From assembly GCA_021108325.1 (NCBI GenBank), contig JAIORB010000038.1:17217-81216 (forward strand): a DNA stretch of 64,000 bases. The letters run 5' to 3'. Below, one piece after another: positions 11,007-41,019 of the stretch (position 1 is its first letter; each line of letters opens with the position of its first letter). Both the position numbers and the translations under genes were made by a program. The stretch comes from Bacteroidales bacterium (GTDB taxonomy: Bacteria > Bacteroidota > Bacteroidia > Bacteroidales > UBA12077). Under the pieces are notes generated by a model that was given only the letters and a program-made list of their open reading frames with translations, was not told the DNA's origin and made no database searches.

Positions 11007-11064
11007 AGCATTTATTGGTCTACATAGGTATGAAAGCGGATATTCATATTACTTTTTAACTAAA

Positions 11065-11628: not shown

Positions 11629-11640
11629 CTGTTTATAATT

Positions 11641-12794: not shown

Positions 12795-13047
12795 ACTTGA
12801 AGTGCCTAAAGTTTAAAATGTCTATAATGCCTAAAATTCAATTTCTTATAATTTTATTTTCAAAATCAATAATGGTTTAGATTCTTCTAATTTGTACGTT
12901 TCCTTGTTCATAATTTTGTAAACTTTATATTTTAAAACCTTTCTTTCAAGCTATAAAATTTATAATTAAAACTTTGTGTTGCTTCCTAATTGCTACAACA
13001 CTCCTTATTATCTATTTTAAATAACTTTAGGCATTTTTAATTTTAGT

Positions 13048-13761: not shown

Positions 13762-13895
13762 TTTAAAAATTATTGATCGTATTTAAAAGAAGTTTCCTTT
13801 TTAATTAAATAATCAAAAATTTGCATCGAATTTTTAGTATTTTAGCTGATGCTCCAATTTCAATAAGTTGCTGAAATACTGATAAATAGTTTTTA

Positions 13896-21880: not shown

Positions 21881-24800
21881 ATGAAAAAATTTACTCTTTT
21901 AACATTTATTTTTTCTATTACCTTAATATTTACGGTATTTGGGCAAAAGGGTTATATAAACCCTGCTGCAAAGTACTGTGAAATGTTAGGATACAGATAC
22001 GAAGTTACCTCAGTAAAAGGTAGTGGTGAAGTAGGTATTGTTCATTTGCCTGACGGACAAATGGTAAATGCATGGGATTTCTTTAAAGGTAAAGTTGCTC
22101 CCGAATATTCTTATGCTGCAAAGTTAGGTTTCGATGTAGAAACTGAAGTTGTAAAAGAAAACGGATATACTGTTGAAAGAGCAGTATGTGTTCGTATGAA
22201 CAAAGGAGTTGAGGAAAGAATTCCATTATTAGAATTAATGGAATTAAATGGAGAACCTTTAAATGCAGAAGTTGAAAAAACTATTCCAACTATTCAGGAA
22301 ATTGCAAAAGTTGATCCAAATTTTACAAACGTAAAAAGTCTTCCTTCAGAGTTTGACTGGAGAAACTATAATGGACATTCTTATATAGGCGATGTGCGGA
22401 ACCAGGGAAGTTGTGGTTCTTGTTATGCATTTGGAGCAACTGCATGTGCAGAGGGAACTTATAACTTTGCTACCGGCAGCTATGACAGTAATACTTCTGA
22501 TTTTTCTGAAGGCTGGATAGCTTTTTGTTTAAGTGATATATCTCCTTATAGCAGCCATTTTGATGGTTGTAATGGAGCAGATTATGATTATTATGAATTA
22601 CAGGCATTAGTTGATATTGGACATATAGATGAATCTTATTTCCCTTATTCTGATGCAAGTAATCAGTCATGCCCTTCTACAACAGAAAGTGCTCCAAAAA
22701 TCCAATTCGAAGGATGGTACAGAGTACCTTGTGCCGATGTTGATGCTATTAAAACTGCTATTATGACTTATGGTGTTGTTGATGCCGCGGTGTATGTTAC
22801 TACAGCATTTCAAAATTACACAGAAGGAGTGTTTACCGATAGTTATACAACATGTAATTCTAGTCCTTGTTATAATGCGACTACAAACCATGCAATAGCA
22901 TTGATAGGCTGGGGCGTTGATGCAACAGAAGGAGAATACTGGATTTTAAGAAACTCATGGGGTAGCTCATGGGGAGACGGTGGTTATATGAAGTTATCTG
23001 TTAATGCTTCACATGTTGACTGCTCTGTTTGTTATATGGTTTACACTGATGACGGATCAGTTGCTCCAACTGTAACTTCTAATACTGTTACTGGAATTGG
23101 AGATAACACTGCTACTTGTGGTGGTAATGTTACAGATGATGGTGGAGCTGCTATTATCGCTAGTGGTATTGTTTATAGCAAAACATCTGGTGTTAACACA
23201 TCTAATGGAACAGTTGTTGAAACATCACCTACTGTAACAAGTGGTTCTTATAGTTTAACTATGAATGGATTATTATCTGGAACTACATATTATGTAAATT
23301 CTTTTGCTACAAATGCAAAAGGAGCTGGTTATGGAACAGAAAGAAGCTTTACAACAACTGGCGAAGCTCAAATCGAATATTGTTCATCTCAAGGTGCTAA
23401 TTATTCATATGAGTGGATTGCTGGTGTAGTAGTTGGTGATTTCTCCAATACTTCTGGTGCTGCAGGTTATACAGATTTTACCGGTATGACAGCTAATTTA
23501 ACTGCAGGTGAAACTTACAATATTACATTAACTCCTGCTTTTAGTGGTTCTACATACAATGAATATTGGAAAATATGGATTGATTTAAATCATGATGGAG
23601 ACTTTGACGATGCAGATGAAAATGTATTTGATCAGGGAGGAATGAGCAAAACAATAGTTACAGGTTCTATTACAATTCCTGCAAGTGCAGCAGCTGTTAC
23701 AACTCGCATGAGAGTTACAATGAAATATAATGCTGAACCAACAGCTTGTGAAGCGTCATTTAGTTATGGAGAGGTAGAAGATTATACTGTTCAGATACTT
23801 GGAGGAGACACGGAAGCTCCAACTGCTCCATCAAGCTTAATTGCTTCAAATATTACAATGACAAGTGTTGATCTTGACTGGAATGCTTCAACAGATAATG
23901 TTGGTGTTGCAGGATATGATGTATATCAAAACGGTTCTTTAATAACTAATACTACAAATACATATTATAATGTTAGTGGATTAACTTCGGGAACTTCATA
24001 TTCATATTATGTTATTGCTAAAGATGCTGTAGGAAATGAGTCTGATGCAAGTAATACTGTTAATATAACTACAGATACTGATACTCAAGCTCCAACTGCT
24101 CCGGCAAATTTGGCATCTTCAAGTATTACAGCAACATCTGTTGGTTTAAGCTGGAATGCTTCAACTGATAATGTTGGTGTTACCGGGTATGACGTTTATA
24201 AAGATGGTGCTTATTTAGCAAGCACATCTGGTACTTCATATAATGTATCCGGCCTGACAAAGGCTACAACATATACATTCTATGTGAAAGCAAAAGATGC
24301 TGCGGGTAATGTGTCTGCTGCAAGTGATTATTTAGATGTTACAACATTAGATGAAGTTGTTGTTGTTGAATATTGTGATCTTTATGCAACCAGTGCAAGG
24401 TTTGAGTGGATTGATGTATTTGGCTTAAATGATTTATACAATACTTCAGGAGCTAATGCAGGTTATGGCGATTATACTAGCTTAACCGCAAATGTTTCCG
24501 CAGGAACAAGCTACACAGCTAGTTTAAGTGCCGGATTTAAGAGAAGAACATACACTGAATACTGGAATGTATGGATCGACTTTAATATTGATGGTGAATT
24601 TACTAGTGACGAAATTGTTGTTCAGGGAACTGTTGCTGATGGTAATGTTTATACTGCAACGGTAGATATTCCTTCTACAGCAACAATCGGTCAGACAAGA
24701 TTGCGTGTTGCAATGTCTGATGCTGGTTATTCTGCTGCTTGTGGATCATTCAGATATGGCGAAGTAGAAGATTATACTGTTAATATTACAGCTAAAGCTG

Positions 24801-25075
24801 CTCCAATAGCACGAATGGTATATGGAAAACTATTAGGAAATGATGAAGTAACTAATATTAAAGTTTATCCTAATCCTGCAAAAGAAGAATTAAATATAGA
24901 AATACCATTTGATAATGCAAAGGTTAGAATTATTAATTCAACCGGAGCAATTGTTAAAGAAGTAGTGTTAAATAACGAAAAAGTAATTAATATTTCTGAT
25001 TTAGCTAATGGTTTATATATTATTTCAGTAGAAGATGATAAAGGCCCTATTACAGAAACATTTATTAAACAATAA
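21881..25075 (+). CDS. T9SS-secreted multidomain papain-family (C1) cysteine peptidase
   Basis: Signal peptide and a DUF333-like N-domain (NPAAKYCEMLGY...). C1 catalytic residues are QGSCGSCYAF, NHAIALIGWG and NSWGSSWGDGGY. Also two GEVED-type domains (YGEVEDYTV x2), two FN3 repeats (WNASTDNVGV.GYDVY) and a Por tail (KVYPNPAKEELNIE...GLYIISV). Confidence 0.8.
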   Translation: MKKFTLLTFIFSITLIFTVFGQKGYINPAAKYCEMLGYRYEVTSVKGSGEVGIVHLPDGQMVNAWDFFKGKVAPEYSYAAKLGFDVETEVVKENGYTVERAVCVRMNKGVEERIPLLELMELNGEPLNAEVEKTIPTIQEIAKVDPNFTNVKSLPSEFDWRNYNGHSYIGDVRNQGSCGSCYAFGATACAEGTYNFATGSYDSNTSDFSEGWIAFCLSDISPYSSHFDGCNGADYDYYELQALVDIGHIDESYFPYSDASNQSCPSTTESAPKIQFEGWYRVPCADVDAIKTAIMTYGVVDAAVYVTTAFQNYTEGVFTDSYTTCNSSPCYNATTNHAIALIGWGVDATEGEYWILRNSWGSSWGDGGYMKLSVNASHVDCSVCYMVYTDDGSVAPTVTSNTVTGIGDNTATCGGNVTDDGGAAIIASGIVYSKTSGVNTSNGTVVETSPTVTSGSYSLTMNGLLSGTTYYVNSFATNAKGAGYGTERSFTTTGEAQIEYCSSQGANYSYEWIAGVVVGDFSNTSGAAGYTDFTGMTANLTAGETYNITLTPAFSGSTYNEYWKIWIDLNHDGDFDDADENVFDQGGMSKTIVTGSITIPASAAAVTTRMRVTMKYNAEPTACEASFSYGEVEDYTVQILGGDTEAPTAPSSLIASNITMTSVDLDWNASTDNVGVAGYDVYQNGSLITNTTNTYYNVSGLTSGTSYSYYVIAKDAVGNESDASNTVNITTDTDTQAPTAPANLASSSITATSVGLSWNASTDNVGVTGYDVYKDGAYLASTSGTSYNVSGLTKATTYTFYVKAKDAAGNVSAASDYLDVTTLDEVVVVEYCDLYATSARFEWIDVFGLNDLYNTSGANAGYGDYTSLTANVSAGTSYTASLSAGFKRRTYTEYWNVWIDFNIDGEFTSDEIVVQGTVADGNVYTATVDIPSTATIGQTRLRVAMSDAGYSAACGSFRYGEVEDYTVNITAKAAPIARMVYGKLLGNDEVTNIKVYPNPAKEELNIEIPFDNAKVRIINSTGAIVKEVVLNNEKVINISDLANGLYIISVEDDKGPITETFIKQ

Positions 25076-25625: not shown

Positions 25626-26018
25626 ATGGCTTTAAAAGAATCGGATATAAAGAAGTATTCTATACAAATTGCTGAAAAAAATGAGGTGTTTGTATGGATA
25701 GGTCCATGTTCTGTTAAAAAAATGGAATTTACAAAAATACCACTGGATGGTAGAAAGTATGAATGTGGAGGAGAAGTCTTTCTGGCAAATGGACTTGTTT
25801 TACAAGCTAGTTTCAGAATGCAGAAAACCAATGATGTTTTATTAATTGAAGACACTGTTTATACAAAAATTGATGGAATATGGTATAAACTCAATGAACC
25901 TGAATTCCTTGAAAAAACCGGTTTGGACAAAGAAGATGTTTTTCCTGTTGAATGGAAACCGGACATCCCATTAAATCACCCATTAAAAGGACCATACAAA
26001 ATGAACTGGAAAGGATAA
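25626..26018 (+). CDS. hypothetical protein
   Basis: 130-aa ORF preceded by aaggag and followed by a strong terminator. No motif recognised. Confidence 0.4.
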   Translation: MALKESDIKKYSIQIAEKNEVFVWIGPCSVKKMEFTKIPLDGRKYECGGEVFLANGLVLQASFRMQKTNDVLLIEDTVYTKIDGIWYKLNEPEFLEKTGLDKEDVFPVEWKPDIPLNHPLKGPYKMNWKG

Positions 26019-26047
26019 AAAAAGGAGAGCAATTTTGCTCTCCTTTT
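26017..26047. terminator. bidirectional intrinsic terminator (end of the sulfur operon)
   Basis: aaaaaaa-ggagagc-aatttt-gctctcc-tttt between convergent genes. Confidence 0.75.
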
Positions 26048-26069: not shown

Positions 26070-27119
26070 TTATACAACTTGTTTAATCTTATCGAAATAC
26101 ATTGCAAATGAACGATATAAAAAGTGTGTCCATTTACCAAATGGAACAATAATCAACGCCCATTGAACGAGTACTATTAAATGGAATAAGTACATCCAAA
26201 TATTATTTTCTATTAAATCAAGATCAATAAAAACTCGAACAATAAATGCAGTAAATCCCAATAAAAATAACCAGATTACGAAAAACCAGTCTGATGGTTG
26301 AGAAAACTTATTTACTTCTTTATTCTTTTGAATCCGGCCAGCAACAAAAATGAATGTAATAATAAATATTACAACGCTTTCAATGTATCCGAGAAGAATA
26401 ATAAAAAGATTTTCGGTTCCAAACCAGTCAAGAACAACGGTTGTAAATAGTAATGCTAGATATCCAAAAACAAGGATAAGATGCATAAACCATCGGGTTT
26501 GACTATCGTCGCAACCCAAAGTTCTTTTTTGTGTAAACATATGTATTAAGAGGTCTTGAAACTCTTTGAAATATGTTATAAATTTTACTTTAATACCAGG
26601 CTTAATAATCACAAAATACCACATCCGAAAAAGGTTAGGTAAAATAATAAATGTGAAAACGGAAGCAATCGATAACATTTCAAACAGATGACCGTGGTGC
26701 ATTATAGTTTCTACATTAAAATTCTGGTATACGCTATAGTATATAACGCCAATAGCAGTAATTATAAATGCAAAAAGACTAAATAACAGAGATTTTTGTA
26801 ACAAGCCTGATAAACCTGTCCAGTCGTATTTCGCTGTTAGCCATCGTCGTAACGACATCATAAGCTCGCCCGGATTAGCTTCACGAGGACATGTTGTAGC
26901 ACAATCGCCACAATAATAACATAACCAGGGATCTAAAGATGTAGTTATTTTTTCATCTAAACCTAACACACTTGCCCTAACCATTTTTCTGGGAAATGAG
27001 TTATGTTCATCAGTTAAACTACATACGGCTGTACAGTTACCACAATTATAACATGCATTAAAATCGCCATTACCGTATTTAAAGATTTCTTTTGCAAAAT
27101 CAGGATTTATTTTTGCCAT
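26070..27119 (-). CDS. QmoC-like membrane subunit (HdrC-type 2x[4Fe-4S] domain fused to a cytochrome-b/NarI-like multi-TM domain)
   Basis: N-terminal CYNCGNCTAVCS and CYYCGDCATTCP, followed by at least 5 hydrophobic helices with conserved-looking His (HHGHLFEM, FMHLILVF, LFHLIVLV, KWTHFLY). Confidence 0.7.
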   Translation of the reverse strand: MAKINPDFAKEIFKYGNGDFNACYNCGNCTAVCSLTDEHNSFPRKMVRASVLGLDEKITTSLDPWLCYYCGDCATTCPREANPGELMMSLRRWLTAKYDWTGLSGLLQKSLLFSLFAFIITAIGVIYYSVYQNFNVETIMHHGHLFEMLSIASVFTFIILPNLFRMWYFVIIKPGIKVKFITYFKEFQDLLIHMFTQKRTLGCDDSQTRWFMHLILVFGYLALLFTTVVLDWFGTENLFIILLGYIESVVIFIITFIFVAGRIQKNKEVNKFSQPSDWFFVIWLFLLGFTAFIVRVFIDLDLIENNIWMYLFHLIVLVQWALIIVPFGKWTHFLYRSFAMYFDKIKQVV

Positions 27120-27124
27120 ATCCT

Positions 27125-27403
27125 TTACTTTTTCAGTTTGTAAAAATAAAATTCGTCCATATCGTCTACTTCTCCGGCTTCAATATTTCCGTATTTCTGA
27201 AGAGTCATAAGATGATATGTTACAACATCCAGAGGAAGATCTATTTCTTGTGCTATTTGTGGAACAGTTTTTTCTTCGGTTTCCAGAGATTTTAAAATCT
27301 GCCTTTTGATTTTATTAAAGGCTTTCATATTTTCTTTTACCGAATCGGAAACTTTCCTTTTTGTCTTAATAATGTCTATTGTTTTTCCCATAATTTTATG
27401 CAC
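27125..27403 (-). CDS. small winged-helix (ArsR/MarR-like) protein embedded in the redox module
   Basis: 92 aa. KRQILKSLETEEKTVPQIAQEIDLPLDVVTYHLMTLQKYGNIE looks like an HTH plus wing. It is 2 nt and 5 nt from its neighbours. Confidence 0.45.
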   Translation of the reverse strand: MHKIMGKTIDIIKTKRKVSDSVKENMKAFNKIKRQILKSLETEEKTVPQIAQEIDLPLDVVTYHLMTLQKYGNIEAGEVDDMDEFYFYKLKK

Positions 27404-27405
27404 TA

Positions 27406-29343
27406 TTAATAAATTAAAGCTTCAATCATACTTTCCATTTCTATGTCTGTATATCCGATTAAATCAATTGCATTTTCAGGACATACAGGCAAACACATTC
27501 CACATCCTTTACATAAGGATTTAGATACTTCAGCCACTTCTTTGTCTTTGTATTTAATTTTAGAAATAGCATCGTAAGGACATGCCTCCGTACATTTATC
27601 ACACCATGTACATTTATCGTTATGTATAACGGCCATGGTAGGTTCAAGTTTTATTTCGCCCGAACTTACAAGAGAGTTAACTTTTGAAGCTGCTGATAGA
27701 GCAGATTTAACCGATTCTGTTATATTTAAAGGTGCCTGACATGCTCCTGAAATCAGAACTCCGTCAATTACAGTTTCAACAGGACGTAATTTAGGATGAA
27801 TTTCATTGAAAAATTTATCACGACCAATAGGAACTTTTAGAATGTTTACAATACCTTCATAATCTCTTGGTACCATACCGGTTACCAGGACAACTAAATC
27901 GGCATTAACTTCAAGCTCTTCATTGTCAGTTAAAATATCATTAATTTTAACGATTGTTTCATTTCCAGCTCTTTCAACCTGTGGCGGAGCTTCTTCAAAT
28001 GATTGTAAGAAAATATCTCCTGCTTCTGAAGCTTCATGATAAAGTTTTTCCTGTTTACCATAAGTTCTGATACCCCGGTTAAAATGGAAATTGTTAATTT
28101 CAGAATACTTCTCTTTAGCCAGAATTGCTGTATGAATTGCGGAAGTACAACAATATCTTGAACAATATTTATTAGGACCGTCAATTTGCCGGCTTCCTAC
28201 ACAATAAATATATGCTATATTCTTTATCGTTTTATTGTTATAAATTAATGCGTCTTCGTTCAATTCAATTAATCGTTTGAACTGTTGTAGTGTAATCACA
28301 TTGTCAATTTCACCAAATCCAAATTCACCTTTAGTAGGTTCGTAAGGATTAAAACCTGTGCTTAATTGTATTGCACCAACAGATATATTAACTTCTTCAG
28401 GTTGTTGGTTAAGATCGATATCAGCACAAATTTTTACACACTCACCACATTTGTTACATGCTTCACAATCTATAGCAGGAATTTCAGGGAATTCACTACA
28501 ATAGTTTTTATAGATAGCTTTGCGTTTAGTAATATTGAAATTGAATTCATCATCAACCTCAATTGGACAAACTGCAATAGCTTTTTCAAGATCTTTTATA
28601 TCATGCTTACAGTCAGGTTTTATATACCGTGGTTTTATTTTAAGTGTCAGGTTAAATTCTCCTACACTTCCTTTTTTACCAATAATTTCTGTTCCGGTAT
28701 ATAAGGTAATTTTTGGATGAGTATTAATCTGATGATATAACCTGGTAACAACTTCCTGTCCGGTTTCATTAGTAGTAAAAAGGACATTCCACTGCGAGGT
28801 TCTACCTCCAACAAAATGTTCACGTTCTATTAAATGAACAGTAGTTCCCATTTCTGCTAATTCAAGAGCGGCTCTCATTCCGGCAATACCTGCACCAACA
28901 ACCGCAACAGCATTAATTGAAGGAATTTTAATCGGAATCAATTCTTTCGAATGTTTCACTCTTTCAATTCCTCCTTTAACCAGATTAATAGCTTTTTCTG
29001 TGGCTAAAGGCGGATTATCAGAATGAGCCCATGAGCCTTGTTCACGAATATTTACCTGAACATAATTGTATGGGTTTAATCCTCCTCTTTGAGCAACATT
29101 TCGGAAAGTGTCTAAATGTAATTTTGGAGAACAGGATGCAACAACAATTGCATCAAGCTTTTGCTCTTTTATATCATTTTCAATTTCCTGTTGTGTAGAA
29201 TCTGCACAGGCAAACATGGTGGTTTTTGCAACATAAACACCATCAATTTTTTCTGCGGCTTCTTTAACTTTATCAACATCTACATAGTCTGAGATGTTAG
29301 ATCCACACATACATACGTAAACTCCTATTTTATTTTTCATCAT
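27406..29343 (-). CDS. HdrA-type FAD/Fe-S flavoprotein (QmoB-position, without fused MvhD domain)
   Basis: HdrA N-domain (IGVYVCMCGSNI...VASCSP), FAD fold VVGAGIAGMRAALELAE, inserted ferredoxin CEACNKCGECVKIC, and CSRYCCTSA. C-terminal 2x[4Fe-4S] sites are CTWCDKCTEACP and CKGCGMCLPVCP. Confidence 0.8.
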   Translation of the reverse strand: MMKNKIGVYVCMCGSNISDYVDVDKVKEAAEKIDGVYVAKTTMFACADSTQQEIENDIKEQKLDAIVVASCSPKLHLDTFRNVAQRGGLNPYNYVQVNIREQGSWAHSDNPPLATEKAINLVKGGIERVKHSKELIPIKIPSINAVAVVGAGIAGMRAALELAEMGTTVHLIEREHFVGGRTSQWNVLFTTNETGQEVVTRLYHQINTHPKITLYTGTEIIGKKGSVGEFNLTLKIKPRYIKPDCKHDIKDLEKAIAVCPIEVDDEFNFNITKRKAIYKNYCSEFPEIPAIDCEACNKCGECVKICADIDLNQQPEEVNISVGAIQLSTGFNPYEPTKGEFGFGEIDNVITLQQFKRLIELNEDALIYNNKTIKNIAYIYCVGSRQIDGPNKYCSRYCCTSAIHTAILAKEKYSEINNFHFNRGIRTYGKQEKLYHEASEAGDIFLQSFEEAPPQVERAGNETIVKINDILTDNEELEVNADLVVLVTGMVPRDYEGIVNILKVPIGRDKFFNEIHPKLRPVETVIDGVLISGACQAPLNITESVKSALSAASKVNSLVSSGEIKLEPTMAVIHNDKCTWCDKCTEACPYDAISKIKYKDKEVAEVSKSLCKGCGMCLPVCPENAIDLIGYTDIEMESMIEALIY

Positions 29344-30628
29344 AACCTCCTCTTAAATAACCTGATGTTTCTGCAGAAGCTGCACCTGCTGATAGGATAG
29401 AGTCCGGAATATCCATTGGACCGGATGCTGTGCCAGCTACGTATACACCACTCATATTAGTTTGAGCAGGATTTGCCAGTATGTCTTTTTGTTCAACAAA
29501 ATTATATTGATCAAGCTCAAGTTTATTATTAAACATTGATGAAACACCATCGTTAGCTAGTATCCCTACTGATAAAACAGCCATGTCATGATTTGCTTCT
29601 TTAACAACACCACTTTCAATATCTTCATAACGAAGTTTTAAATCTCCATTTTCAGTTTCTTCAATTTTCCCTATTTTCCCTTTTATGAAAGTAACACCCA
29701 TATCTTTAGACTGTTGATAGAATTCGTTGAAACCTTTACCAAAAGAACGTATATGAAGATAATATATGGTAACGTCAGCCATAGGTAAAGCTCCCATTAA
29801 AAGTTGAGCTTGTTTTATTGAGTACATGCAACATACTTGAGAACAGATAGGATTTCCTACTGTTTCGTCACGCGATCCTGCACATAATACATAAGCAATA
29901 TTATCAGGAACTTTTCCATCTTTTGGTCTTAGTACATTATTGTAAGGCCTTGTAGGTACAAGTTGTCGTTCCATTTGCATTGATGTTACCACATTCTTAA
30001 ATACTCCGAATCCGTATCGTGGTATTAAGGTTGGGTCAAAAAGCTTAAAACCTGTAGCGATTACTACTGATTTAACTTTAATCTGTATTTCTTCTTCCTC
30101 TTGTGTAAAATCTATACAATCTGCAGGGCATACTTTTTCGCATGCTCCGCATAAGCTGCAGTTTTCAATATCAATTGCAGCAACACGAGGGTTTGCAATG
30201 CTGAAAGGAACATAAACAGCTTTTCTGCCAACTAAATCATACTGATATTGATCCTGTACGGTAACAGGACATGCTTCTTCGCACAATTGACACCCTGTAC
30301 ATGCATCTTCAATTACATATCTTGGATGTTTTGTTAAAAGAGCTCTAAAATCATATTCCGATTTTTTATCAATATTACTTACTTCACTGTATGTATAAAT
30401 AGTTATATTGGGATGCCTTGCTGTTTCGGATACTTTCGGTGTGGTTATACAAGCTGAGCAGTCCAGTGTAGGAAAAACTTTACTAAGATGTATCATTTTT
30501 CCGCCAACGGATAAATCTTTCTCAACGATAAGAACTTTATATCCCTGGTCGGCTAAATTTAATGCTGCTTCCTCACCAGAAATTCCTCCTCCGATAACTA
30601 GTACATCATATTCTTCTGTTTTTGACAT
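29330..30628 (-). CDS. QmoA/HdrA-type FAD/Fe-S flavoprotein
   Basis: VIGGGISGEEAALNLA, LDCSACITTPK, CTGCQLCEEACP, CSLCGACEKVCP and CSQVCCMYS. Overlaps the next gene by 14 nt. Confidence 0.8.
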   Translation of the reverse strand: MSKTEEYDVLVIGGGISGEEAALNLADQGYKVLIVEKDLSVGGKMIHLSKVFPTLDCSACITTPKVSETARHPNITIYTYSEVSNIDKKSEYDFRALLTKHPRYVIEDACTGCQLCEEACPVTVQDQYQYDLVGRKAVYVPFSIANPRVAAIDIENCSLCGACEKVCPADCIDFTQEEEEIQIKVKSVVIATGFKLFDPTLIPRYGFGVFKNVVTSMQMERQLVPTRPYNNVLRPKDGKVPDNIAYVLCAGSRDETVGNPICSQVCCMYSIKQAQLLMGALPMADVTIYYLHIRSFGKGFNEFYQQSKDMGVTFIKGKIGKIEETENGDLKLRYEDIESGVVKEANHDMAVLSVGILANDGVSSMFNNKLELDQYNFVEQKDILANPAQTNMSGVYVAGTASGPMDIPDSILSAGAASAETSGYLRGGYDEK

Positions 30629-30644: not shown

Positions 30645-31046
30645 TTAATTCCCTTTAGATTCTGATAAAAATTTGTGGAATGATTTCATGTGTTTAACAA
30701 AAGCTTCTGCACAAACTGAGCATATTGCAGCCATTTTTAATTTTGCAGGATCAATGTTTTTTTCTTTCATTAATTCATGAGTGTTTGCAACAATTTTTGA
30801 TGTTTTATCAGAACAAGTATCACTGAATGAACAATCTGTTCCATCGGCAGCGATAAATACTCCATCGAAACCTTTATCAAAAGCATGTAAAATCCATTTT
30901 GATTTTATTGCGCTTGAGCAAGGAACATTAACGGTATATACTGTTGCGGGATAATGTTTTTTCAGAAGCCCCGCCATATCAATAGCGGGGTCAGAAATTT
31001 TCTCAGTAGAAAAAACCAGAATTTTTGGATTATCTGTGTTTTCCAT
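30645..31046 (-). CDS. MvhD/FlpD-like (methyl-viologen-reducing hydrogenase delta-type) protein, divergent Cys pattern
   Basis: 133 aa with KILVFS...VNVPCSS...AFDKGFDGVFIAADGTDCSFSDTC...KLKMAAICSVCAEAF. The fold-level pattern is FlpD-like, but the N-terminal CxxC position reads STEK. Confidence 0.6.
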   Translation of the reverse strand: MENTDNPKILVFSTEKISDPAIDMAGLLKKHYPATVYTVNVPCSSAIKSKWILHAFDKGFDGVFIAADGTDCSFSDTCSDKTSKIVANTHELMKEKNIDPAKLKMAAICSVCAEAFVKHMKSFHKFLSESKGN

Positions 31047-31051: not shown

Positions 31052-31303
31052 TTAGCCTTTCTTCATGTAGATTTTGAAATATCCTGAATCTTCTGCTGTT
31101 CCTAAATATTCGTGTCCTTTTTTAGCAGCCCATTTTGGAATATCTTTTCTTGTACCTTCATCAGCTGAAAGAACTTCCATAATCTGGCCTGAACTAATTT
31201 CAGCTATTGCTTTTTTTGCAGCTAATAGCGGGCCAGGACATGCTGTACCTCTTGCATCAACTGATTTGTCAACGTTTAATGCTTTTAATTCTTCTTCGTT
31301 CAT
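31052..31303 (-). CDS. tusA: TusA-family sulfur carrier
   Basis: 83 aa with VDARGTACPGPLLAAKKAI (CPxP motif). Confidence 0.8.
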   Translation of the reverse strand: MNEEELKALNVDKSVDARGTACPGPLLAAKKAIAEISSGQIMEVLSADEGTRKDIPKWAAKKGHEYLGTAEDSGYFKIYMKKG

Positions 31304-32271: not shown

Positions 32272-32772
32272 TTAACCTCCACAACCTCCACCTGATGATT
32301 CTTTTTTTACAGGTGTAGGTGCTGCTTCTCCCATTCCTTGTTCAACGAACTCGGGATAAGTAGCTTCCCAATCGAACCAACTGAAATCAAGCATGTAGCA
32401 ATCGGAATATTTTAATAACTTTAATGACTGAACAGCTAATGCTCCGCTACCCACTTCATTACCAATTACTAAAGTTTTAATCCTCCTGTTTGAAAGTTTG
32501 CTCGAAAATTCAAGAAGCCCTCTTGGAATATGAATAGATCCTGAAATATGCCCTAGCATGAAATCATAATCTTCACGACAATCAATTATTTGTATTTCTG
32601 TATGATTATCAATTAAAGCTTTTAATTCTTCCATGCTCATGGTATTAACTTCTGCTTTAGCAGCAGTAACCATATCTTCGGCATTTTCATATACAGTATT
32701 ATCTTTTTTTACACAACTGAAAAGCAGCGTAAGAGATAATATAGCCGGAACAATAAATTTTATGAATCTCAT
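32272..32772 (-). CDS. rhodanese-fold lipoprotein lacking the catalytic Cys, with C-terminal GGCGG tail
   Basis: Track ORF trimmed to ATG 32772 (MRFIKF...LTLLFSC lipobox), which removes the overlap with the upstream gene. The active-site loop position reads LVIGNEVGSG. The C-terminus is ...PTPVKKESSGGGCGG*. Confidence 0.7.
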   Translation of the reverse strand: MRFIKFIVPAILSLTLLFSCVKKDNTVYENAEDMVTAAKAEVNTMSMEELKALIDNHTEIQIIDCREDYDFMLGHISGSIHIPRGLLEFSSKLSNRRIKTLVIGNEVGSGALAVQSLKLLKYSDCYMLDFSWFDWEATYPEFVEQGMGEAAPTPVKKESSGGGCGG

Positions 32773-32785
32773 AATTGAATTAGTT

Positions 32786-33589
32786 TTATTTCCATTCGTT
32801 ATAAGCACCATCATAAACTTTAACATTTGGATATTCTAAAATTGATGTTAATGCAAGAAATACAACACCAGCTCTAACACTTGTAGCACAATAAAGAATT
32901 ATTTCCTTGTTTTTAGTCATTCCTGCACTATTAAAAAGTTTTTCCAATTCAGCTTTTGATTTTAACTTTCCACCATCGGCAAGAACATTTTTAAACTCAA
33001 GATGCTTTGCTCCGTTAATATGTCCTTCGCCCCATTCTGTGTCGTCTCTAACATCAACAATAACTGCAGAGTTTAATTTTGATTTCACATAAGCTTTATT
33101 GCAAAAAATCTTAGAATTTACTTTAGGTGTAAAAGTAACAGCAGTAACTTTTGTAGCTGCATTTGTAACCGGACCTCTGGCGGTTCTCCATGCCTGCATA
33201 TGCCCATCAAGAACTTTAACATCGTTAAATCCTAAATATTTAAGAATCCAGTATAATCTTCCTGAACCTTTATTTGAACCTGTATCGTAAATAACAATTT
33301 TCTTAGCAGGGTCAATTCCCTTTTTTCCTAAAATTGTTGCCAGCTCAGCAGGAGATTTTAGAATTCCTTTTGGTTCTGTAGTACTTGCTAAAGCATCTAT
33401 GCTAACGTTCACAGCATTTCTGATGTGTACTTTTGCATAATCTTCAGCACTTCTTGTAGAAACAATAACTGTGCTTTTATTATTAACTAATTTTTTTGCT
33501 TCTGCTGCAGAGATTAAATCCTGAGCAATTGAAATATTTACAAAAATGGTTAATAATAAAAAACTAAATAATATGTTTTTAAATTTCAT
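32786..33589 (-). CDS. periplasmic two-domain rhodanese (thiosulfate sulfurtransferase-like)
   Basis: Signal peptide (VNISIA-QD). The N-domain is inactive (VIYDTGSNKGSGR) and the C-domain is active (ILYCATSVRAG). Confidence 0.8.
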   Translation of the reverse strand: MKFKNILFSFLLLTIFVNISIAQDLISAAEAKKLVNNKSTVIVSTRSAEDYAKVHIRNAVNVSIDALASTTEPKGILKSPAELATILGKKGIDPAKKIVIYDTGSNKGSGRLYWILKYLGFNDVKVLDGHMQAWRTARGPVTNAATKVTAVTFTPKVNSKIFCNKAYVKSKLNSAVIVDVRDDTEWGEGHINGAKHLEFKNVLADGGKLKSKAELEKLFNSAGMTKNKEIILYCATSVRAGVVFLALTSILEYPNVKVYDGAYNEWK

Positions 33590-33603: not shown

Positions 33604-34641
33604 TTAAAATTTAACTTGAACTTGTAATACTACCTGATCATTAGGAATTTCAGCTCCATGTTCAGCCCTATATCTGTAATTTAACTGAATTCTTGTCCAA
33701 TCGTTTAAGAAATAGTTAATTCCATAAGTCGTAATGAATTCAGTATTATCATCAATAGATACGTTAGCATCATAACTTTCTAACTTAAATACAGGTTGTA
33801 AATTCCATTGAGTCATATACATTGCCTGAGCAAAGAAACCACTACGTGTTACACCACCAGTGTGGAATTCGATTGGTGTTCCGTCGCAACCACCACCAGT
33901 TGTATAGTCTCCGCTATCATCGGCCCATAAGTATTCACTCTGGAATAAGAAATTACTATATTTTATTTGAAGTTCACCTCCCAAACGAGTTTTTTTATTG
34001 TCCTCATTTGCTCCTGTTTTACCATAAGCAAAACTTCCACCAAATTGTACGAATTCTACAGGTGAAATAGTTACACGTCCTTTAATACTTTTTGCAATAT
34101 TTTCATCCTCGAAACCTCTTTCGTAATCGTTCATTATTGCAAGATAATAATGAAGCTTAGAATCGGCTGTTCCACCAAATAACATAGCTCCCATATCGCG
34201 TTGTGGGCCTGCAAGTTCATTAACAACCTTTGAACGATAAATTGTATGTAATGACTGGCATGCAGTGTTTTGTTCTAAACTTATCGGAGATTTAAATTGT
34301 CCGAAAGTTACTTTAGCCCAATCATATCTGGTATATGATACAAATGCATCTAGTATCCATGGTGAACCGGATTTGAATTTAGAGAAATCGATCATTACAA
34401 AATAACTTACATCATAAGGTATGCTTCCTAATGCAGCTATTCTGGCACGATTAAGTGTAAAGCTGTTAGCATCATGACCATCAGTTGTTTGCCAATATTC
34501 CCATTGTGGCTGAATATATCCTTTTATACTTACTCCCTCATCAGATGATGCCTCCATACAACCTTGTGCAGAAATTACATTTACAGATGTAAATATAATC
34601 AGCATTGAGAGAGTTAATATTGATATTGATTTTTTAATCAT
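33604..34641 (-). CDS. outer-membrane porin (porin O/P-like beta-barrel)
   Basis: Signal peptide, alternating amphipathic strands, and a C-terminal ...VLQVQVKF ending in Phe. Confidence 0.6.
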   Translation of the reverse strand: MIKKSISILTLSMLIIFTSVNVISAQGCMEASSDEGVSIKGYIQPQWEYWQTTDGHDANSFTLNRARIAALGSIPYDVSYFVMIDFSKFKSGSPWILDAFVSYTRYDWAKVTFGQFKSPISLEQNTACQSLHTIYRSKVVNELAGPQRDMGAMLFGGTADSKLHYYLAIMNDYERGFEDENIAKSIKGRVTISPVEFVQFGGSFAYGKTGANEDNKKTRLGGELQIKYSNFLFQSEYLWADDSGDYTTGGGCDGTPIEFHTGGVTRSGFFAQAMYMTQWNLQPVFKLESYDANVSIDDNTEFITTYGINYFLNDWTRIQLNYRYRAEHGAEIPNDQVVLQVQVKF

Positions 34642-34670: not shown

Positions 34671-35648
34671 TTATTCTGTTGGTAAATCAGTAATTACTGT
34701 AGCATCCCACTTACTGGAAGTAAGATCATTATAGATCATTCCATTTGCACCGAATTTTAAGCTATGAGAATTATAACCTAAAACGTATAAATAAGCAGTA
34801 ATAACTGAAGAAGTCTGACCAGTCCAGCAATAAGTTACAACATCTTTAGATGGATCTAAATATATATATTCTTCGCCCGCTAGCGTAAGAGGATTAATTC
34901 TGTGTGCACCAGAAATATTACCATAAGTAGTAACATCAGTAGCAGCCCAGTAATTGTTAATGAAATATGATCCGGGAGCATCTAATACACCAGGACTGTC
35001 ACCTGTTATAGCTGTAACACCTCTTAAACTACCGCTTAATAATGAAGTAACTCTTGCTTCTAAAATAGCAGCACCATCTCCGGTTTCTGTAATATCAGGA
35101 TCTTTGTATTCTGAGGTATGCTCAATAATTGATCCTGGTGATGCAATCCAGTTAGGACTTGAAATAGTATTTGTATTTGGACTCCATGAATCTGTTGAAG
35201 TATGCCATCCGCTCATTCCCCATTTTAATACTTTTGCAGTAGGATAACCACTAAGCCTTAAGGCACAAACAGCATGCCCTGCAGTTTGCCCGGTGTAACA
35301 AACAACAATAATAGTTTTTCCGGCTGCGCTGGCAGCTTGTGTTACAACATTACCATACGAGCAGTTTACAGCACTAGGTATATGACTGGTTGCATAAGCA
35401 TCAGCTTTACGGATGTCTATAACATAATAATTTACTAAATCTGCATTTACAGTTGCAGCGGTAGTTATCCAACCATCTAATATATTATTTAAATCGAGGT
35501 CGTTGTTTTGTAAATAAGTAATTAAAGTTTGAAATTCAGCATCTGTTTCACGTTCCGGTATTAGATCATCAGTATCATCTTTACAAGATGTTAAAACAAA
35601 TGCAGGAATCATTAATAATAAAATAGAGAATCTTAAAAACTGTTTCAT
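34671..35648 (-). CDS. two-domain rhodanese lipoprotein
   Basis: Track ORF trimmed to ATG 35648 (MKQFLRF...FVLTSC lipobox). Two rhodanese-type loops: VVCYTGQTAGH and VTYCWTGQTSS. Confidence 0.7.
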   Translation of the reverse strand: MKQFLRFSILLLMIPAFVLTSCKDDTDDLIPERETDAEFQTLITYLQNNDLDLNNILDGWITTAATVNADLVNYYVIDIRKADAYATSHIPSAVNCSYGNVVTQAASAAGKTIIVVCYTGQTAGHAVCALRLSGYPTAKVLKWGMSGWHTSTDSWSPNTNTISSPNWIASPGSIIEHTSEYKDPDITETGDGAAILEARVTSLLSGSLRGVTAITGDSPGVLDAPGSYFINNYWAATDVTTYGNISGAHRINPLTLAGEEYIYLDPSKDVVTYCWTGQTSSVITAYLYVLGYNSHSLKFGANGMIYNDLTSSKWDATVITDLPTE

Positions 35649-35680
35649 AGTTATATTTATTTTGGTTAGTAAAAGTTTCA

Positions 35681-36166
35681 TTATCCACCACAACCACCTG
35701 ATTCAGGTTGTTTAGTAACTGTAGGATTTTCTCCGGCAAAGCCAAACCAGCCTCCTTGAAGGTTGGAAACATTTTCAAATCCCAGTTTTTTAAGTGCTTG
35801 TGTTGCAAGTGTGCCTCTGGCACCAGACTTACAATACACAATTATTTTGTCAGTTTTAAGAGGAGTGTACATGAATTGTTCTTCCCAATAATATTCATCA
35901 AGAATAAAGAATTCCAATTCACCACGTGGGATAGAGAATGATCCTGGGATATTACCCGCTTCGTATTCGGCAGGTTGTCTAATATCTAATAAAAGGAATT
36001 CTTCTCCGTTATCTATCATTGATTTTAATGTATCAACGCTTATTTCATTTATTTCAGATTTAACAACACTTGCTAATTCTTTTCCGTCTTCATAAATTGC
36101 GGTACAAGCAGAAAGCAAGAAGATAAGCAGTGCTAAAATCGATATATTGAATTTTATATTTTTCAT
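35681..36166 (-). CDS. single-domain rhodanese lipoprotein with intact active site and C-terminal SoxY-type GGCGG tail
   Basis: Lipobox LLSAC, active loop IIVYCKSGARG, and C-terminus ...NPTVTKQPESGGCGG* (DNA: caacctgaatcaggtggttgtggtggataa on the minus strand). Confidence 0.8.
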   Translation of the reverse strand: MKNIKFNISILALLIFLLSACTAIYEDGKELASVVKSEINEISVDTLKSMIDNGEEFLLLDIRQPAEYEAGNIPGSFSIPRGELEFFILDEYYWEEQFMYTPLKTDKIIVYCKSGARGTLATQALKKLGFENVSNLQGGWFGFAGENPTVTKQPESGGCGG

Positions 36167-36194: not shown

Positions 36195-37409
36195 TTAAAA
36201 AGCACTGAATTTTCCTGTGCGTTCGTTCCATTTAACAAATACATACCAAACAAGTATGATTAACAGAACAATTAAGACCGCTCCTGCATATCCAAAGTAG
36301 TCAGGAAGATAATTCTTAAATTTCATGTTATGAGGAAGCTTATTAACAATAGCAGGAACTATATAAAGTTTTGAAATAGGAGATATTAATAAAAATCCTA
36401 AAGCAGCCATCCATAATTTCACTTGTCCTTCGCCAACTCTCCATAAGGTACCTACGGCACATCCTCCGGCAACGGTCATTCCTAATCCAAATATAAATCC
36501 ACCAATAAGACCACGTAACCAGAATTGACTGAAAACCCAGGTCATTTCTCTTGCGCGAATTGAAATTTCGCTTGCACCTATTCCAAAGAATTTAATAGCA
36601 GTAAATCCAATAAGAGTAATTAGCAATCCTGCCATAACCCCTACAGAACCGTCGCTTTCACCTGTCATGAAAGGATCTCTGAAAGCTTTAACAATGCAAA
36701 AACGAGATCTTTGACAAATAAGACCCATTAATAATCCGGATATGATAAACCATGCTAATACTCCATTTGTACCTGCAACTTTATATGCAAGAATAAATGT
36801 TCCGATTGATACAATCCAGCCTAGCCAAATTTGCCAATTTCCTTTGCCTTCTGGGGCTGCAAGAAAAGTAAAGCTTTTTCCGGAACTCATTCCAGGCCAT
36901 TTTTCCATTTCCCAAAGAAGATATTTAAGTGCAAGAATAGTACCCGCAAAAAGACCTATTGTAAAAACAATTGCACCACCTGATAAGGCAGGAACACCAC
37001 TAAAGAATGAACCAATAGTACACCCAAGTCCAAGGGTAGCACCAATTGCCATAAGTGCACCGCCAATAAAACCTTTTAGCAATTCTCCTTTTGGAGGAAT
37101 TCGTAATGCAAATTCTTTTGAGAAAAGAGCTCCTGCAAAAGATCCTAAAATAAGTACCAGACATAATACACCATAAAGACTTGTACTTGTAGGTGCTGCG
37201 TTTTCAAAAGCAGAAATACCGAAAAGTTTAAAAATGTTTTCTCCCCAGTTGTTAATACCTCCGCTGGCACCCCATGGGCTTTTTACTGTAAACAATAAAA
37301 TGTTTAATAAACCCAGAGTTACACCACCAACCCATACAGGCCAATGTTTTGCGAAAAATGTATTAAATAATTCCCGGAGTATTCCTGGCTCTTTTTGTTG
37401 ATCAGCCAT
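36195..37409 (-). CDS. yeeE: YeeE/YedE-family thiosulfate/sulfur-compound transporter (TsuA-like)
   Basis: 404 aa, polytopic, with duplicated halves carrying GLGCTIGSFFSG and AGGCAVGTLW motifs. Confidence 0.85.
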   Translation of the reverse strand: MADQQKEPGILRELFNTFFAKHWPVWVGGVTLGLLNILLFTVKSPWGASGGINNWGENIFKLFGISAFENAAPTSTSLYGVLCLVLILGSFAGALFSKEFALRIPPKGELLKGFIGGALMAIGATLGLGCTIGSFFSGVPALSGGAIVFTIGLFAGTILALKYLLWEMEKWPGMSSGKSFTFLAAPEGKGNWQIWLGWIVSIGTFILAYKVAGTNGVLAWFIISGLLMGLICQRSRFCIVKAFRDPFMTGESDGSVGVMAGLLITLIGFTAIKFFGIGASEISIRAREMTWVFSQFWLRGLIGGFIFGLGMTVAGGCAVGTLWRVGEGQVKLWMAALGFLLISPISKLYIVPAIVNKLPHNMKFKNYLPDYFGYAGAVLIVLLIILVWYVFVKWNERTGKFSAF

Positions 37410-37418
37410 TTTTACCTC

Positions 37419-37649
37419 CTATTTTTTTTGAATTAGAAATCTAAAAACACCACTTTCAACTTCACCTTCTTCAACTATTGTGTTGCCAGTTTTTTCGCAC
37501 CATTTTGGCAAATCTGATTTTGTTCCAGGATCGGTTCCAAGCATTTCTAAAACTTCACCTGAGTTTAATCCTTTAATTGCTTTAGCCAGTTTCATCATTG
37601 GCATTGGACATGAAAGCCCTTTACAATCTAATGTTTCTTTAATTTCCAT
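37419..37649 (-). CDS. TusA-family sulfur carrier (YeeD/TsuB-like)
   Basis: 76 aa with LDCKGLSCPMPMMKLAKAI, 9 nt upstream of yeeE. Confidence 0.8.
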   Translation of the reverse strand: MEIKETLDCKGLSCPMPMMKLAKAIKGLNSGEVLEMLGTDPGTKSDLPKWCEKTGNTIVEEGEVESGVFRFLIQKK

Positions 37650-37839: not shown

Positions 37840-38535
37840 ATGGAAAGATTCTCAGCGTTAAATAGCTGCACTGTAAGTAATTCTAAATGTATTTGTTTCG
37901 ATGTGTTAACGGAAGAAGAACAGGATTTGATAAGTAAAAACCAGATTGAAGTTCGTTATAAAAAAGGTGAAGTAATTTGTAAACACGGAACATTTGCCCC
38001 TCATATTATATTTTTGAAAGAAGGATTAGCCAAGGTTTATCTGGAAGGATTAAATGATTCTTTAATTTTAAAGATAATCACATCAGGTAATTTGATTGGG
38101 CTTACTACGATCATGGAGGACAATAATGTGTTTCATTATTCATCATCAGCATATGTTGATTCAACAGCAAACCTTATTGATATAAATATATTTAGAAAAA
38201 TTATTAAACAAAATGCTGAGTTTGCAAGTTCTATAATAAATATATTATGTGAAAACTCTTTACAAACTTTCGGAAGATTTTTTTGCCTGACTCACAAGCA
38301 ATTATACGGCAGGATGGCTGATATTATTTTATGTTTATCAGAAAGAATCTTTAAAGAAAGAAATTTTGAAATGAATCTTTCGAGAAAAGAACTTGCTGAA
38401 TTAACCGGAATGTCGACAGAAAGTGTTATTCGAATGCTTAAGAAATTTAAAGACGACGGTATAATTGAAATGCATGGAAAGACTCTTAATATTTCAAATT
38501 ATGATTTGTTAAGAAAAATTAGTGAATACGGATAA
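37840..38535 (+). CDS. Crp/Fnr family transcriptional regulator (N-terminal C-X6-C-X-C)
   Basis: cNMP-binding-like beta-roll plus a C-terminal HTH (LSRKELAELTGMSTESVIRMLKKF). N-terminal Cys10/Cys17/Cys19. Confidence 0.8.
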   Translation: MERFSALNSCTVSNSKCICFDVLTEEEQDLISKNQIEVRYKKGEVICKHGTFAPHIIFLKEGLAKVYLEGLNDSLILKIITSGNLIGLTTIMEDNNVFHYSSSAYVDSTANLIDINIFRKIIKQNAEFASSIINILCENSLQTFGRFFCLTHKQLYGRMADIILCLSERIFKERNFEMNLSRKELAELTGMSTESVIRMLKKFKDDGIIEMHGKTLNISNYDLLRKISEYG

Positions 38536-40965: not shown

Positions 40966-41019
40966 TATATAAATATTTAAAATATTAATTAATAATTATA
41001 AAATTCTATCCCGTATTGG

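Follow-up and report, generated by a model that had tools for sequence, protein, structure and literature searches.

With which partner does a Qmo-like membrane complex exchange electrons when its genes are accompanied by those of small sulfur carriers instead of adenosine 5′-phosphosulfate (APS) reductase? Qmo/Hdr-type complexes are central to anaerobic energy conservation, and the way in which Qmo links the oxidation of quinol to low-potential reactions in the cytoplasm has been an open question since 2003. The question is raised here by a 64,000-nt stretch of a Bacteroidales bacterium contig (the window; all coordinates without a locus number are window positions), in which 15 closely packed genes on the minus strand, running from 37649 to 26070, form an operon. 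Its 3′ part encodes an MvhD/FlpD-like protein (133 aa), two HdrA-type flavoproteins (A, 432 aa; B, 645 aa), a winged-helix protein (92 aa), and a QmoC-like protein (349 aa), preceded by a TusA of 83 aa. An earlier note on this DNA had taken A, B, and the QmoC-like protein as a Qmo-like complex acting on a protein-bound persulfide or trisulfide. The three open reading frames (ORFs) lie where that note had placed them, on the minus strand; this observation was confirmed and its interpretation partly supported, with function predicted from sequence. The operon probably enables fermenters to exchange electrons between the membrane and sulfur on carrier proteins, with no need of the enzymes of sulfate reduction.

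The QmoC-like protein contains two cluster motifs, CYNCGNCTAVCS and CYYCGDCATTCP, ahead of a membrane part, as the earlier note had described, except that CYNCGNCTAVCS terminates in CS, not CP. Its N-terminal part matched HdrC (E = 2e-15). The AlphaFold2 model (predicted local distance difference test score [pLDDT], 91.4) has six transmembrane helices and a C-terminal helix, and Foldseek matched it to HdrC, NarI of nitrate reductase (probability 0.99–1.0), and mycobacterial EtfD. These matches bear out the QmoC design, HdrC joined to an HdrE/NarI-like domain, proposed in the earlier note. We counted the conservation of His and Cys residues in an alignment of 95 diverse members of the QmoC superfamily, which takes in the QmoC proteins of Archaeoglobus and Desulfofundulus; aprBA adjoins the loci of two such proteins. 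H213 was found in all 95 sequences, H332 in 94, H313 in 93, and C203 in 91. A His at the start of the second transmembrane helix occurred in 72/95, and the eight cluster Cys were invariant or nearly so. The window protein has this His/Cys set in common with the apr-linked QmoC of Archaeoglobus sulfaticallidus and Desulfofundulus. In the model, H141/H144 and H313 lie near the outer membrane face and H213 and H332 near the inner face, which is the placement required by two bis-His hemes b. The earlier note had made the cytochrome b assignment depend on conserved heme-ligating His, and with these counts the assignment stands. The 349-aa protein is thus an HdrC::cytochrome b fusion with the real QmoC His set, and it is predicted to bind two hemes. 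In Desulfovibrio, the hemes b of QmoC are reducible by quinols (PMC3333476).

The NCBIfam model of qmoC (NF038018) aligned with the window protein over its full length at 161.9 bits, under the cut-off of 300. We rejected this cut-off as a marker of "canonical" QmoC: the apr-linked Desulfofundulus QmoC fails it with 201, and it is passed, with 305.7, by an archaeal TusA-linked QmoC whose 8-kb flanks contain no apr gene. Among 1.8 billion representative proteins searched, a single full-length sequence (60% identity) stood for the Bacteroidales QmoC clade, and the next relatives were 36–41% identical. An exact-sequence look-up of the window protein returned no record.

All the motifs that the earlier note had listed for A were present (GGGISG, LDCSAC, CTGCQLCEEACP, CSLCGACEKVCP, and CSQVCC). 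A covers residues 146–561 of methanogen HdrA, namely the thioredoxin-reductase core and the inserted ferredoxin (E = 3e-112). B, with the motifs VCMCGSNI, GAGIAG, and CSRYCC and the C-terminal CTWCDKCTEACP and CKGCGMCLPVCP, aligned with methanogen HdrA from end to end (4–643 against 4–649, E = 5e-127). The full HdrA layout claimed for B held for the N-terminal Cys cluster, the flavin adenine dinucleotide (FAD) fold, CSRYCC, and the C-terminal 2x[4Fe-4S]. It did not hold for the inserted ferredoxin, which is degenerate and retains one complete four-Cys set (C259, C296, C299, and C302). B therefore has the four-domain architecture of HdrA with one inserted-ferredoxin cluster degenerate, and it is without a DCxxC motif. 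The FAD-binding sequence motifs are GGGISG in A and GAGIAG in B. FPTxDCxxC and the complete inserted 2x[4Fe-4S] ferredoxin were found in A only, and the N-terminal four-Cys domain and C-terminal ferredoxin in B only. This asymmetry fits an A/B heterodimer in place of an HdrA homodimer.

We compared A and B with one methanogen HdrA and one apr-linked reference in place of a curated tree. The reference was Desulfofundulus thermobenzoicus (L085; L-numbers denote related loci from species-representative genomes, metagenome contigs, and archaeal contigs), whose gene order is sat-aprBA-qmoA-qmoB-CCG protein-qmoC. Against these single references, A was 44% identical to HdrA versus 36% to QmoA, and B was 37% identical to HdrA over its full length versus 28% to QmoB over a partial match. 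On these identities, A and B are not canonical QmoA/B and are closer to HdrA. The earlier note had named subunits inside the canonical Qmo clade, together with aprAB/sat in the genome, as grounds for dropping its claim of novelty; these identities do not point to that clade.

The earlier reading omitted the MvhD/FlpD and winged-helix genes, both of which belong to the same conserved unit. In an alignment, four Cys (in FxC, xxCSG, GGC, and GDCHY) were common to methanogen MvhD, the C-terminal domain of apr-linked QmoB, and hydrogenase-linked FlpD. The window protein keeps two of these (C43 and C72), has lost the other two, and has gained three (C78 and C109-x-x-C112). The identical rewiring was observed in both archaeal TusA-linked homologues, and C43, C72, C78, C109, and C112 were invariant in 108 MvhD-like sequences. 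The rewiring co-varies with TusA linkage; MvhD domains linked to apr or to a hydrogenase do not show it. As a CCG domain of the HdrB/DsrK type is not encoded, the rewired MvhD-like protein is the sole candidate found for a site acting on an S–S bond. One may speculate that its chemistry is akin to that of ferredoxin:thioredoxin reductase, in which a cluster and a disulfide work together.

The winged-helix gene was present in 79/80 genome loci. A single-sequence model of its product (pLDDT 82) resembled Z-alpha and ArsR/MarR folds in Foldseek, and its C-terminus is acidic (DDxDE...Y). DsrD was considered and rejected as its identity, since there was no Pfam DsrD hit and the top 50 Foldseek matches contained generic folds only. 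Bacteroidales and archaea have the gene at the same position in the operon. Such constancy is unusual for the gene of a regulator, and the protein may be a structural subunit.

To what extent is this arrangement conserved? A scan of species-representative genomes with the QmoC-like protein gave at least 562 confirmed matches, a count whose search pattern suggests that it also takes in more distant QmoC relatives. The best 80 of these genomes were analyzed; all carry the operon, and nearly all are labelled Bacteroidota, mostly Bacteroidales. A scan of metagenome contigs, aimed at distant clades, mostly recovered this Bacteroidales clade again, plus variants with a swapped QmoC or linked to a hydrogenase. 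When the best genome loci and the metagenome loci were pooled, 99 had at least 5.3 kb upstream, and 94 of them had TusA-MvhD-A-B-winged helix-QmoC in this order. In the other five (L012, L107, L110, L129, and L156), A is enlarged to ca. 914 aa and TusA lies further upstream. The enlarged A (L012, 5017–7761, plus strand) has Fer4_20 and Pyr_redox_2 domains, of the NAD(P)H-binding GltD/NfnB type, inserted in its ferredoxin domain. Such an A resembles HdrL and implies that a pyridine nucleotide is a partner. Because the order recurs in 94/99 loci and the other five differ solely by the insertion in A, the gene arrangement is not due to chance.

The conserved genes include those of the sulfur carriers. 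A DsrE-fold gene lies directly upstream of TusA in 72/94 loci. The active-site C22 of TusA was invariant in 103 sequences, and C101 of the 142-aa DsrE-fold protein was likewise invariant. The two DsrE-fold proteins of the window are 59% identical, and the second gene is a recent paralogue of the first. Leaving aside the import part, the operon consists of genes for electron-transfer proteins, sulfur carriers, and the winged-helix protein only. The minimal operon was found in the cultured isolate Labilibaculum euxinus. Other carriers are the isolate Ancylomarina longa and metagenome-assembled genomes (MAGs) labelled Draconibacterium orientale and Mangrovibacterium sp.

The earlier note had placed TusA, DsrE-like proteins, and rhodaneses beside the complex instead of APS reductase. 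Pfam identified two TusA, two DsrE-fold proteins, and four rhodaneses, plus a porin and a YedE/YeeE protein. No tblastn hit to AprA, AprB, or Sat was obtained in the window or in ca. 160 related bacterial loci (2.2 Mb in all). The other large ORFs of the window are housekeeping or unrelated genes, with no AprA, AprB, or Sat among them. In the literature, Marinifilaceae have been described as incapable of sulfate reduction (PMC9765461) and Marinilabiliales as being without Sat (PMC10128000). The claim thus held for the window and the bacterial loci and is tempered by one archaeal locus, L168, which is considered below with the proposed mechanism.

The QmoC module was not confined to one partner. 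It adjoins AprBA/Sat in L085 and in Archaeoglobus (L169), and it occurs with [NiFe] hydrogenase, HdrA-like, and FlpD genes in L084, L151, and L153. The QmoC of these three loci are the closest non-TusA relatives of the window QmoC (38–56% identical). These loci also encode a 460-aa FAD oxidoreductase, a canonical FlpD, and the small and large hydrogenase subunits, with a HycI maturation protease additionally in L084, a set that looks like a quinone-linked Mvh/Hdr-like hydrogenase complex. L160–L162 and L165–L167 contain the TusA-linked operon with the other subunits mostly 58–82% identical to those of the window; their QmoC is ca. 40% identical to that of the window and 44–47% identical to the apr-linked type. 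This indicates that the membrane subunit was replaced within an otherwise conserved operon. Since QmoC is found with AprBA, hydrogenase, or TusA/DsrE and has been swapped within the operon, it appears to be an exchangeable quinone/membrane module. The variable element is the partner position, which TusA/DsrE fill in the window.

The six-gene module TusA-MvhD-A-B-winged helix-QmoC was also present on four archaeal contigs (L087, L168, L170, and L171). In L087 and L168, identity with the window proteins was 51–58% for A (58% for A447), 47–48% for B, 44–54% for TusA, 34–44% for the MvhD-like protein, and 39–41% for the winged-helix protein. The archaeal TusA-linked QmoC is sister to Archaeoglobus QmoC (ca. 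50% identical). No apr gene was found within 8–10 kb in L087, L170, and L171. The archaeal occurrence suggests that TusA linkage is a general trait of this Qmo type, which coexists with APS reductase in some archaea. The Bacteroidales case, where no Apr is known, is unchanged by the archaeal cases.

Which known system does the operon resemble? Canonical (type I) QmoABC, for which Desulfovibrio, Archaeoglobus, and Chlorobaculum were compared, likewise has two HdrA-like flavoproteins, one short and one long, together with a di-heme cytochrome b of the HdrC::HdrE type, and it shares an MvhD-type module and the QmoC His/Cys set with the window operon (PMC3333476). A fits the short HdrA-like QmoA. 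In contrast to canonical QmoB, which carries a C-terminal MvhD-like domain, B has the full HdrA architecture without this domain, and MvhD is a separate gene with another Cys pattern. In the bacterial loci searched, the window type of operon was never beside aprBA/sat and had TusA instead. Type II Qmo is defined by QmoA/B being nearer to typical HdrA than to bacterial QmoA/B (PMC10504309, PMC8477390), and this holds for A and B with the one HdrA and one apr-linked reference used here. Type II QmoAB occurs in the sulfate reducers Vulcanisaeta moutnovskia and Ammonifex degensii (PMC10504309). In 2023, type II Qmo was reported with or without Dsr/Apr and its function was left open (PMC10504309). 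However, the fixed synteny with TusA, the rewired MvhD, and the winged-helix gene, and the distribution in Bacteroidales, were not found described in the literature searched. That literature contained general mentions of type II Qmo and of archaeal dsrEFH type II with qmoAB, and no description of a TusA-MvhD-HdrA-HdrA-QmoC operon. Four features were not mentioned there: the operon with its fixed order, how widely it occurs in Bacteroidales, the rewired Cys of MvhD, and the variant with an NAD(P)H module.

The likeness to MvhAGD-HdrABC of methanogens (PDB 5odc, 9sfi, and 8rvu) lies in the end-to-end match of B to HdrA, the separate MvhD-family protein, and the HdrC-type 2x[4Fe-4S]. In contrast, the operon has neither HdrB (CCG) nor hydrogenase, its HdrC domain continues into a membrane cytochrome b, the HdrA homodimer would be replaced by an A/B heterodimer, and its MvhD is without two of the four canonical Cys. 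The sHdr-LbpA system (PMC11094781) likewise pairs Fe-S flavoproteins related to Hdr with TusA, rhodaneses, and proteins of the DsrE family. However, HdrB1/B2, HdrC1/C2, and LbpA (the shdrC1B1AHC2B2 set) are not among the 15 operon genes. sHdrA is short (349 aa; 6tjr) with a weak, partial match to the window, and sHdr is without a membrane cytochrome. DsrMK(JOP) with the DsrC trisulfide similarly joins the quinone pool to cytoplasmic protein-bound sulfur through a NarI-type di-heme cytochrome b. Here, the CCG domain of DsrK is absent, the carrier would be TusA/DsrE, and the HdrA-type flavoproteins have no counterpart in Dsr.

YedE/YeeE, TusA, and DsrE-family genes also occur together in the YTD cluster and with DsrEFH type II (PMC12998232, PMC13293266), but the window DsrE-fold proteins (PF13686) had no BLAST similarity to the archaeal 113/107/59-aa trio. 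No YTD chp genes were recognizable in the operon, and the complete YTD cluster has been reported only in Desulfobacterota and Nitrospirota (PMC12998232). A 2026 paper reported archaeal dsrEFH type II genes in synteny with qmoAB (PMC13293266), which was also seen in L168 and L170: a DsrEFH-type-II-like trio (113, 107, and 56–59 aa) adjoins the module in both. The stretches concerned are 9122–14273 and 1983–2330 in L168, where sat-DUF6955-aprB-aprA and dsrC are also encoded, and 4823–5669 in L170. By analogy, the window system would be Qmo-like and DsrMK/DsrC-like in action. It appears to be a member of neither, because no apr genes adjoin it in the window or the bacterial loci searched and the CCG domain is absent, and it fits the loosely defined type II Qmo.

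From these results, we propose that the operon is a sulfur operon whose redox end is a reductase that is linked to menaquinone, may confurcate electrons, and acts on sulfane sulfur bound to TusA/DsrE. This proposal is tentative, and we give it slightly less than an even chance. Architecture, cofactor motifs, gene order, and the lack of nearby apr/sat were observed directly; the link to quinone, sulfur on TusA as the substrate, the direction of electron flow, and confurcation are inferred. External thiosulfate, polysulfide, or S0 would enter through the porin, the periplasmic rhodaneses, YeeE, and the YeeD-like TusA, and the DsrE-fold proteins would relay the sulfane sulfur to the 83-aa TusA. 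Electrons from menaquinol would pass through the two hemes and two [4Fe-4S] clusters of QmoC to the A/B pair, a heterodimer mimicking the HdrA homodimer, and to the MvhD-like protein, and H2S would be released. The partner would be sulfane sulfur on the active-site Cys of TusA and the DsrE-fold carriers, not APS reductase; judging from gene content, we infer that it is held as a protein persulfide or trisulfide, in line with the earlier note. The S–S bond would most likely be cleaved at the MvhD-like protein with its extra CxxC. Reduction is favored because the operon holds an import route for oxidized or zero-valent sulfur, because nothing encoded could oxidize sulfane sulfur further, and because the hosts are anaerobic fermenters with FNR-like regulators.

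Several points weigh against this proposal. The potential of menaquinol is ca. −75 mV and that of the S0/H2S (persulfide) couple ca. −270 mV. Menaquinol alone therefore cannot reduce persulfide or S0, and a second low-potential donor is expected. Ferredoxin could fill this role, entering at the inserted ferredoxin of A, which is intact, or at the C-terminal one of B, and NAD(P)H could do so in the 914-aa variants of A. In flavin-based confurcation, the mean of the ferredoxin and menaquinol potentials would be close to that of the sulfur couple. Such a scheme with an unknown third partner was proposed for Qmo in 2012 (PMC3333476). An HdrB/HdrD CCG domain or other known S–S-cleaving site was not found in the operon; tblastn with the CCG protein against the window and all the related loci matched only the ferredoxin part of QmoC, and the operon gave no CCG Pfam hit. 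The YeeE/rhodanese/porin import extension was present in only ca. 10 of the 80 genome loci (ca. 10–15% of loci). A redox partner unlinked to the operon may exist, the Apr/Sat search having covered the window and the related loci. In L168, the module is convergent to sat-DUF6955-aprB-aprA, followed by the DsrEFH-type-II-like trio, with dsrC upstream. The archaeal module may serve APS reductase there, and TusA linkage alone does not exclude such service. Biochemical or expression data on any member were not found in the literature searched. As a separate observation, the trio in L168 is apparently co-transcribed with sat-DUF6955-aprB-aprA.

The main rival explanation reverses the direction: sulfide or the sulfane sulfur on TusA/DsrE would be oxidized, with menaquinone as one electron acceptor and ferredoxin or NAD(P)+ as the other, reached by bifurcation, resulting in detoxification or in TusA persulfide for biosynthesis. 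Electron flow from sulfide to menaquinone is thermodynamically downhill (PMC3333476), and the HdrA-type parts of A/B would suit bifurcation. Qmo acts oxidatively in sulfur oxidizers (PMC10504309), TusA/DsrE cascades feed the oxidative sHdr and rDsr systems (PMC11094781, PMC13293266), and Marinilabiliales track sulfide-producing sulfate reducers in sediments (PMC10128000). However, sulfide would not need the import route of porin, rhodaneses, and YeeE, and CCG/HdrB, LbpA, Dsr, or Soe for further oxidation of sulfane sulfur were not found in the operon. The carriers are heterotrophic fermenters, and their FNR-like regulators point to anoxic expression. We consider the oxidative direction rather unlikely. 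A more far-reaching possibility is that the complex represents a new enzyme class, a flavin-based confurcating or bifurcating sulfane-sulfur:menaquinone/ferredoxin (or NAD(P)H) oxidoreductase, in which the MvhD-like CxxC would replace HdrB/DsrK in cleaving the TusA/DsrE persulfide or trisulfide. This possibility is doubtful at present.

The operon could instead encode a generic type II Qmo whose true partner is located elsewhere, such as an AprAB-like, DsrC-like, or other enzyme or a small disulfide or persulfide, e.g., coenzyme A (CoA) persulfide. TusA/DsrE would then be accessory, in sulfur delivery, maturation, or sensing. The neighborhood of the same module in L168, the occurrence of type II QmoAB in V. 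moutnovskia and A. degensii (PMC10504309), the lack of a recognizable catalytic S–S site in the operon, and a CoA-disulfide-reductase-like gene 9 kb away in the window all agree with this explanation. On the other hand, it leaves unexplained that TusA is the first gene of the core with an invariant catalytic Cys and that the MvhD rewiring goes with TusA linkage. The lack of Apr/Sat hits in the window and the bacterial loci, the host orders reported without Sat and sulfate reduction (PMC10128000, PMC9765461), and the archaeal L087, L170, and L171 without nearby apr also speak against it, and we judge it improbable. A final alternative is that selenium rather than sulfur is handled, by YedE/YedF-type trafficking and a reductase. 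The top NCBIfam hit of the 404-aa transporter is indeed "selenium metabolism membrane protein YedE/FdhT," and the 83-aa TusA weakly hits YedF. However, these scores are far under their cut-offs (137.7 versus 350 and 36.8 versus 110, respectively), on which ground the selenium explanation was rejected. The transporter is absent from most loci, rhodanese and DsrE-fold proteins are sulfur-transfer families, and no selD or selenoprotein genes were among the annotated window ORFs, the remainder of the window not having been scanned. Therefore, selenium is very improbable.

The features of the locus are listed in Table 1. The 5′ part of the operon encodes, in order, a 76-aa TusA, a 404-aa YedE/YeeE protein, rhodaneses of 161 and 340 aa, and a 345-aa porin (Pfam, NCBIfam), followed in the middle by rhodaneses of 267 and 184 aa, DsrE-fold proteins of 137 and 142 aa (PF13686), and the 83-aa TusA. 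The NCBIfam YedE and TsuA hits of the 404-aa transporter were under the cut-offs. TusA proteins of the TsuB/YeeD type split thiosulfate to persulfide and sulfite (PMC11582611). Signal or lipoprotein sequences are visible in the translations of the porin and all four rhodaneses. The two single-domain rhodaneses (35681–36166 and 32272–32826, minus strand) each have a C-terminal tail that is rich in Gly and contains a single Cys (...SGGCGG); related loci encode 17 and 19 homologues, respectively, in which the tail is conserved. In the 184-aa rhodanese, whose catalytic loop has no Cys, the one in the tail may be the sole sulfur-carrying residue, like a swinging arm.

Table 1 Features of the window surrounding the Qmo-like operon.
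Feature	Position	Strand	Basis
Bidirectional terminator hairpin, operon end	26020..26047	.	12-bp stem, T tract on either strand
QmoC-like protein, N-terminal HdrC-type 2x[4Fe-4S] and six-helix NarI/HdrE-like cytochrome b (predicted)	26070..27119	-	NCBIfam, HdrC match, AlphaFold2/Foldseek
Cys-free winged-helix (ArsR/Z-alpha-like) protein, 92 aa, between B and C (QmoC-like)	27125..27403	-	Pfam HTH_5, HTH_20
Subunit B, full-length HdrA-type Fe-S flavoprotein (N-terminal 4-Cys domain, FAD core, C-terminal 2x[4Fe-4S])	27406..29343	-	PDB 9sfi_A/5odc_A
Subunit A, HdrA core (FAD domain, intact inserted 2x[4Fe-4S] ferredoxin, CSQVCC), QmoA layout	29330..30628	-	PDB HdrA match
MvhD/FlpD-like Fe-S protein, 133 aa, rewired Cys (C43, C72, C78, C109xxC112)	30645..31046	-	Pfam FlpD E 4.5e-27
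TusA, 83 aa, CPGP active-site Cys22, first gene of conserved core	31052..31303	-	Pfam TusA E 6e-23
DsrE-fold (PF13686 DrsE_2) sulfur-transferase-like protein, 142 aa	31363..31791	-	Pfam; PDB 2qs7_A E 6e-17
Second DsrE-fold protein, 137 aa	31833..32246	-	Pfam; C96 invariant
Two exported rhodaneses, 184 aa (lipoprotein signal) and 267 aa (two-domain)	32272..33589	-	Pfam Rhodanese, translations
Outer-membrane anion porin, phosphate-selective porin O/P family	33604..34641	-	Pfam Porin_O_P E 4e-13
Two exported rhodaneses, 340 aa (two domains) and 161 aa (CKSGAR loop, C-terminal GGCGG)	34671..36166	-	Pfam, translations
YedE/YeeE-family sulfur transporter, 404 aa, and preceding TusA/YeeD-like carrier, 76 aa, operon start	36195..37649	-	Sulf_transp E 3e-54; TusA E 2e-25
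Crp/FNR-family regulator, divergent, N-terminal Cys cluster	37840..38535	+	Pfam

A homologue of the divergent Crp/FNR regulator was likewise divergent from the cluster in ca. 45 of the 80 related loci, and a second regulator of this family lies at 38720–39412 (minus strand). The N-terminal Cys of the pair are arranged as C10/C17/C19 in one and CxxCx5C in the other, and both may be sensors of redox state, oxygen, or persulfide. A scan for sigma-70 promoters was uninformative (61 sites found versus 63 expected). A 451-aa CoA-disulfide-reductase-like flavoprotein is encoded within 39610–41508 (minus strand; NCBIfam CoADR 233 bits, below cut-off), and a 162-aa ORF without a Pfam hit comes after it. 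The 162-aa ORF and a Crp230-type regulator recur near the cluster in L036, L062, L069, L070, and L123.

At the other end, a 130-aa ORF without a Pfam match (25626–26018, plus strand) converges on the operon with a common terminator and was kept only in the closest relatives (L001–L003, L005, L006, and L016). Just past the 3′ (QmoC) end of the operon lies a gene for a 1064-aa secreted protein (21881–25075, plus strand), whose translation, judged by eye, may contain a papain-like peptidase region, FN3-like repeats, and a C-terminal sorting-type sequence of the type IX secretion system; this would fit a Bacteroidota origin. The G+C content of the window is ca. 31% with no break in composition at the locus, and the nearest relative of its proteins was a Bacteroidales MAG (98% identity).

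This operon gives the Qmo architecture with a minimal partner set, small sulfur carriers, in cultivable Bacteroidales. If it carries out redox reactions of carrier-bound sulfane sulfur, abundant "fermenters" of sediments, wetlands, and digesters would join cryptic sulfur cycling that escapes surveys of dsr, apr, sox, psr, and phs, and type II Qmo, whose role was left open in the literature, would gain a function. If the complex also represents a new enzyme class, a cytoplasmic, quinone-coupled respiration of S0 or thiosulfate, missed by current marker-gene surveys, would exist in some archaea and in hundreds of species of fermentative Bacteroidales, and the "third partner" logic of Qmo would be identified.

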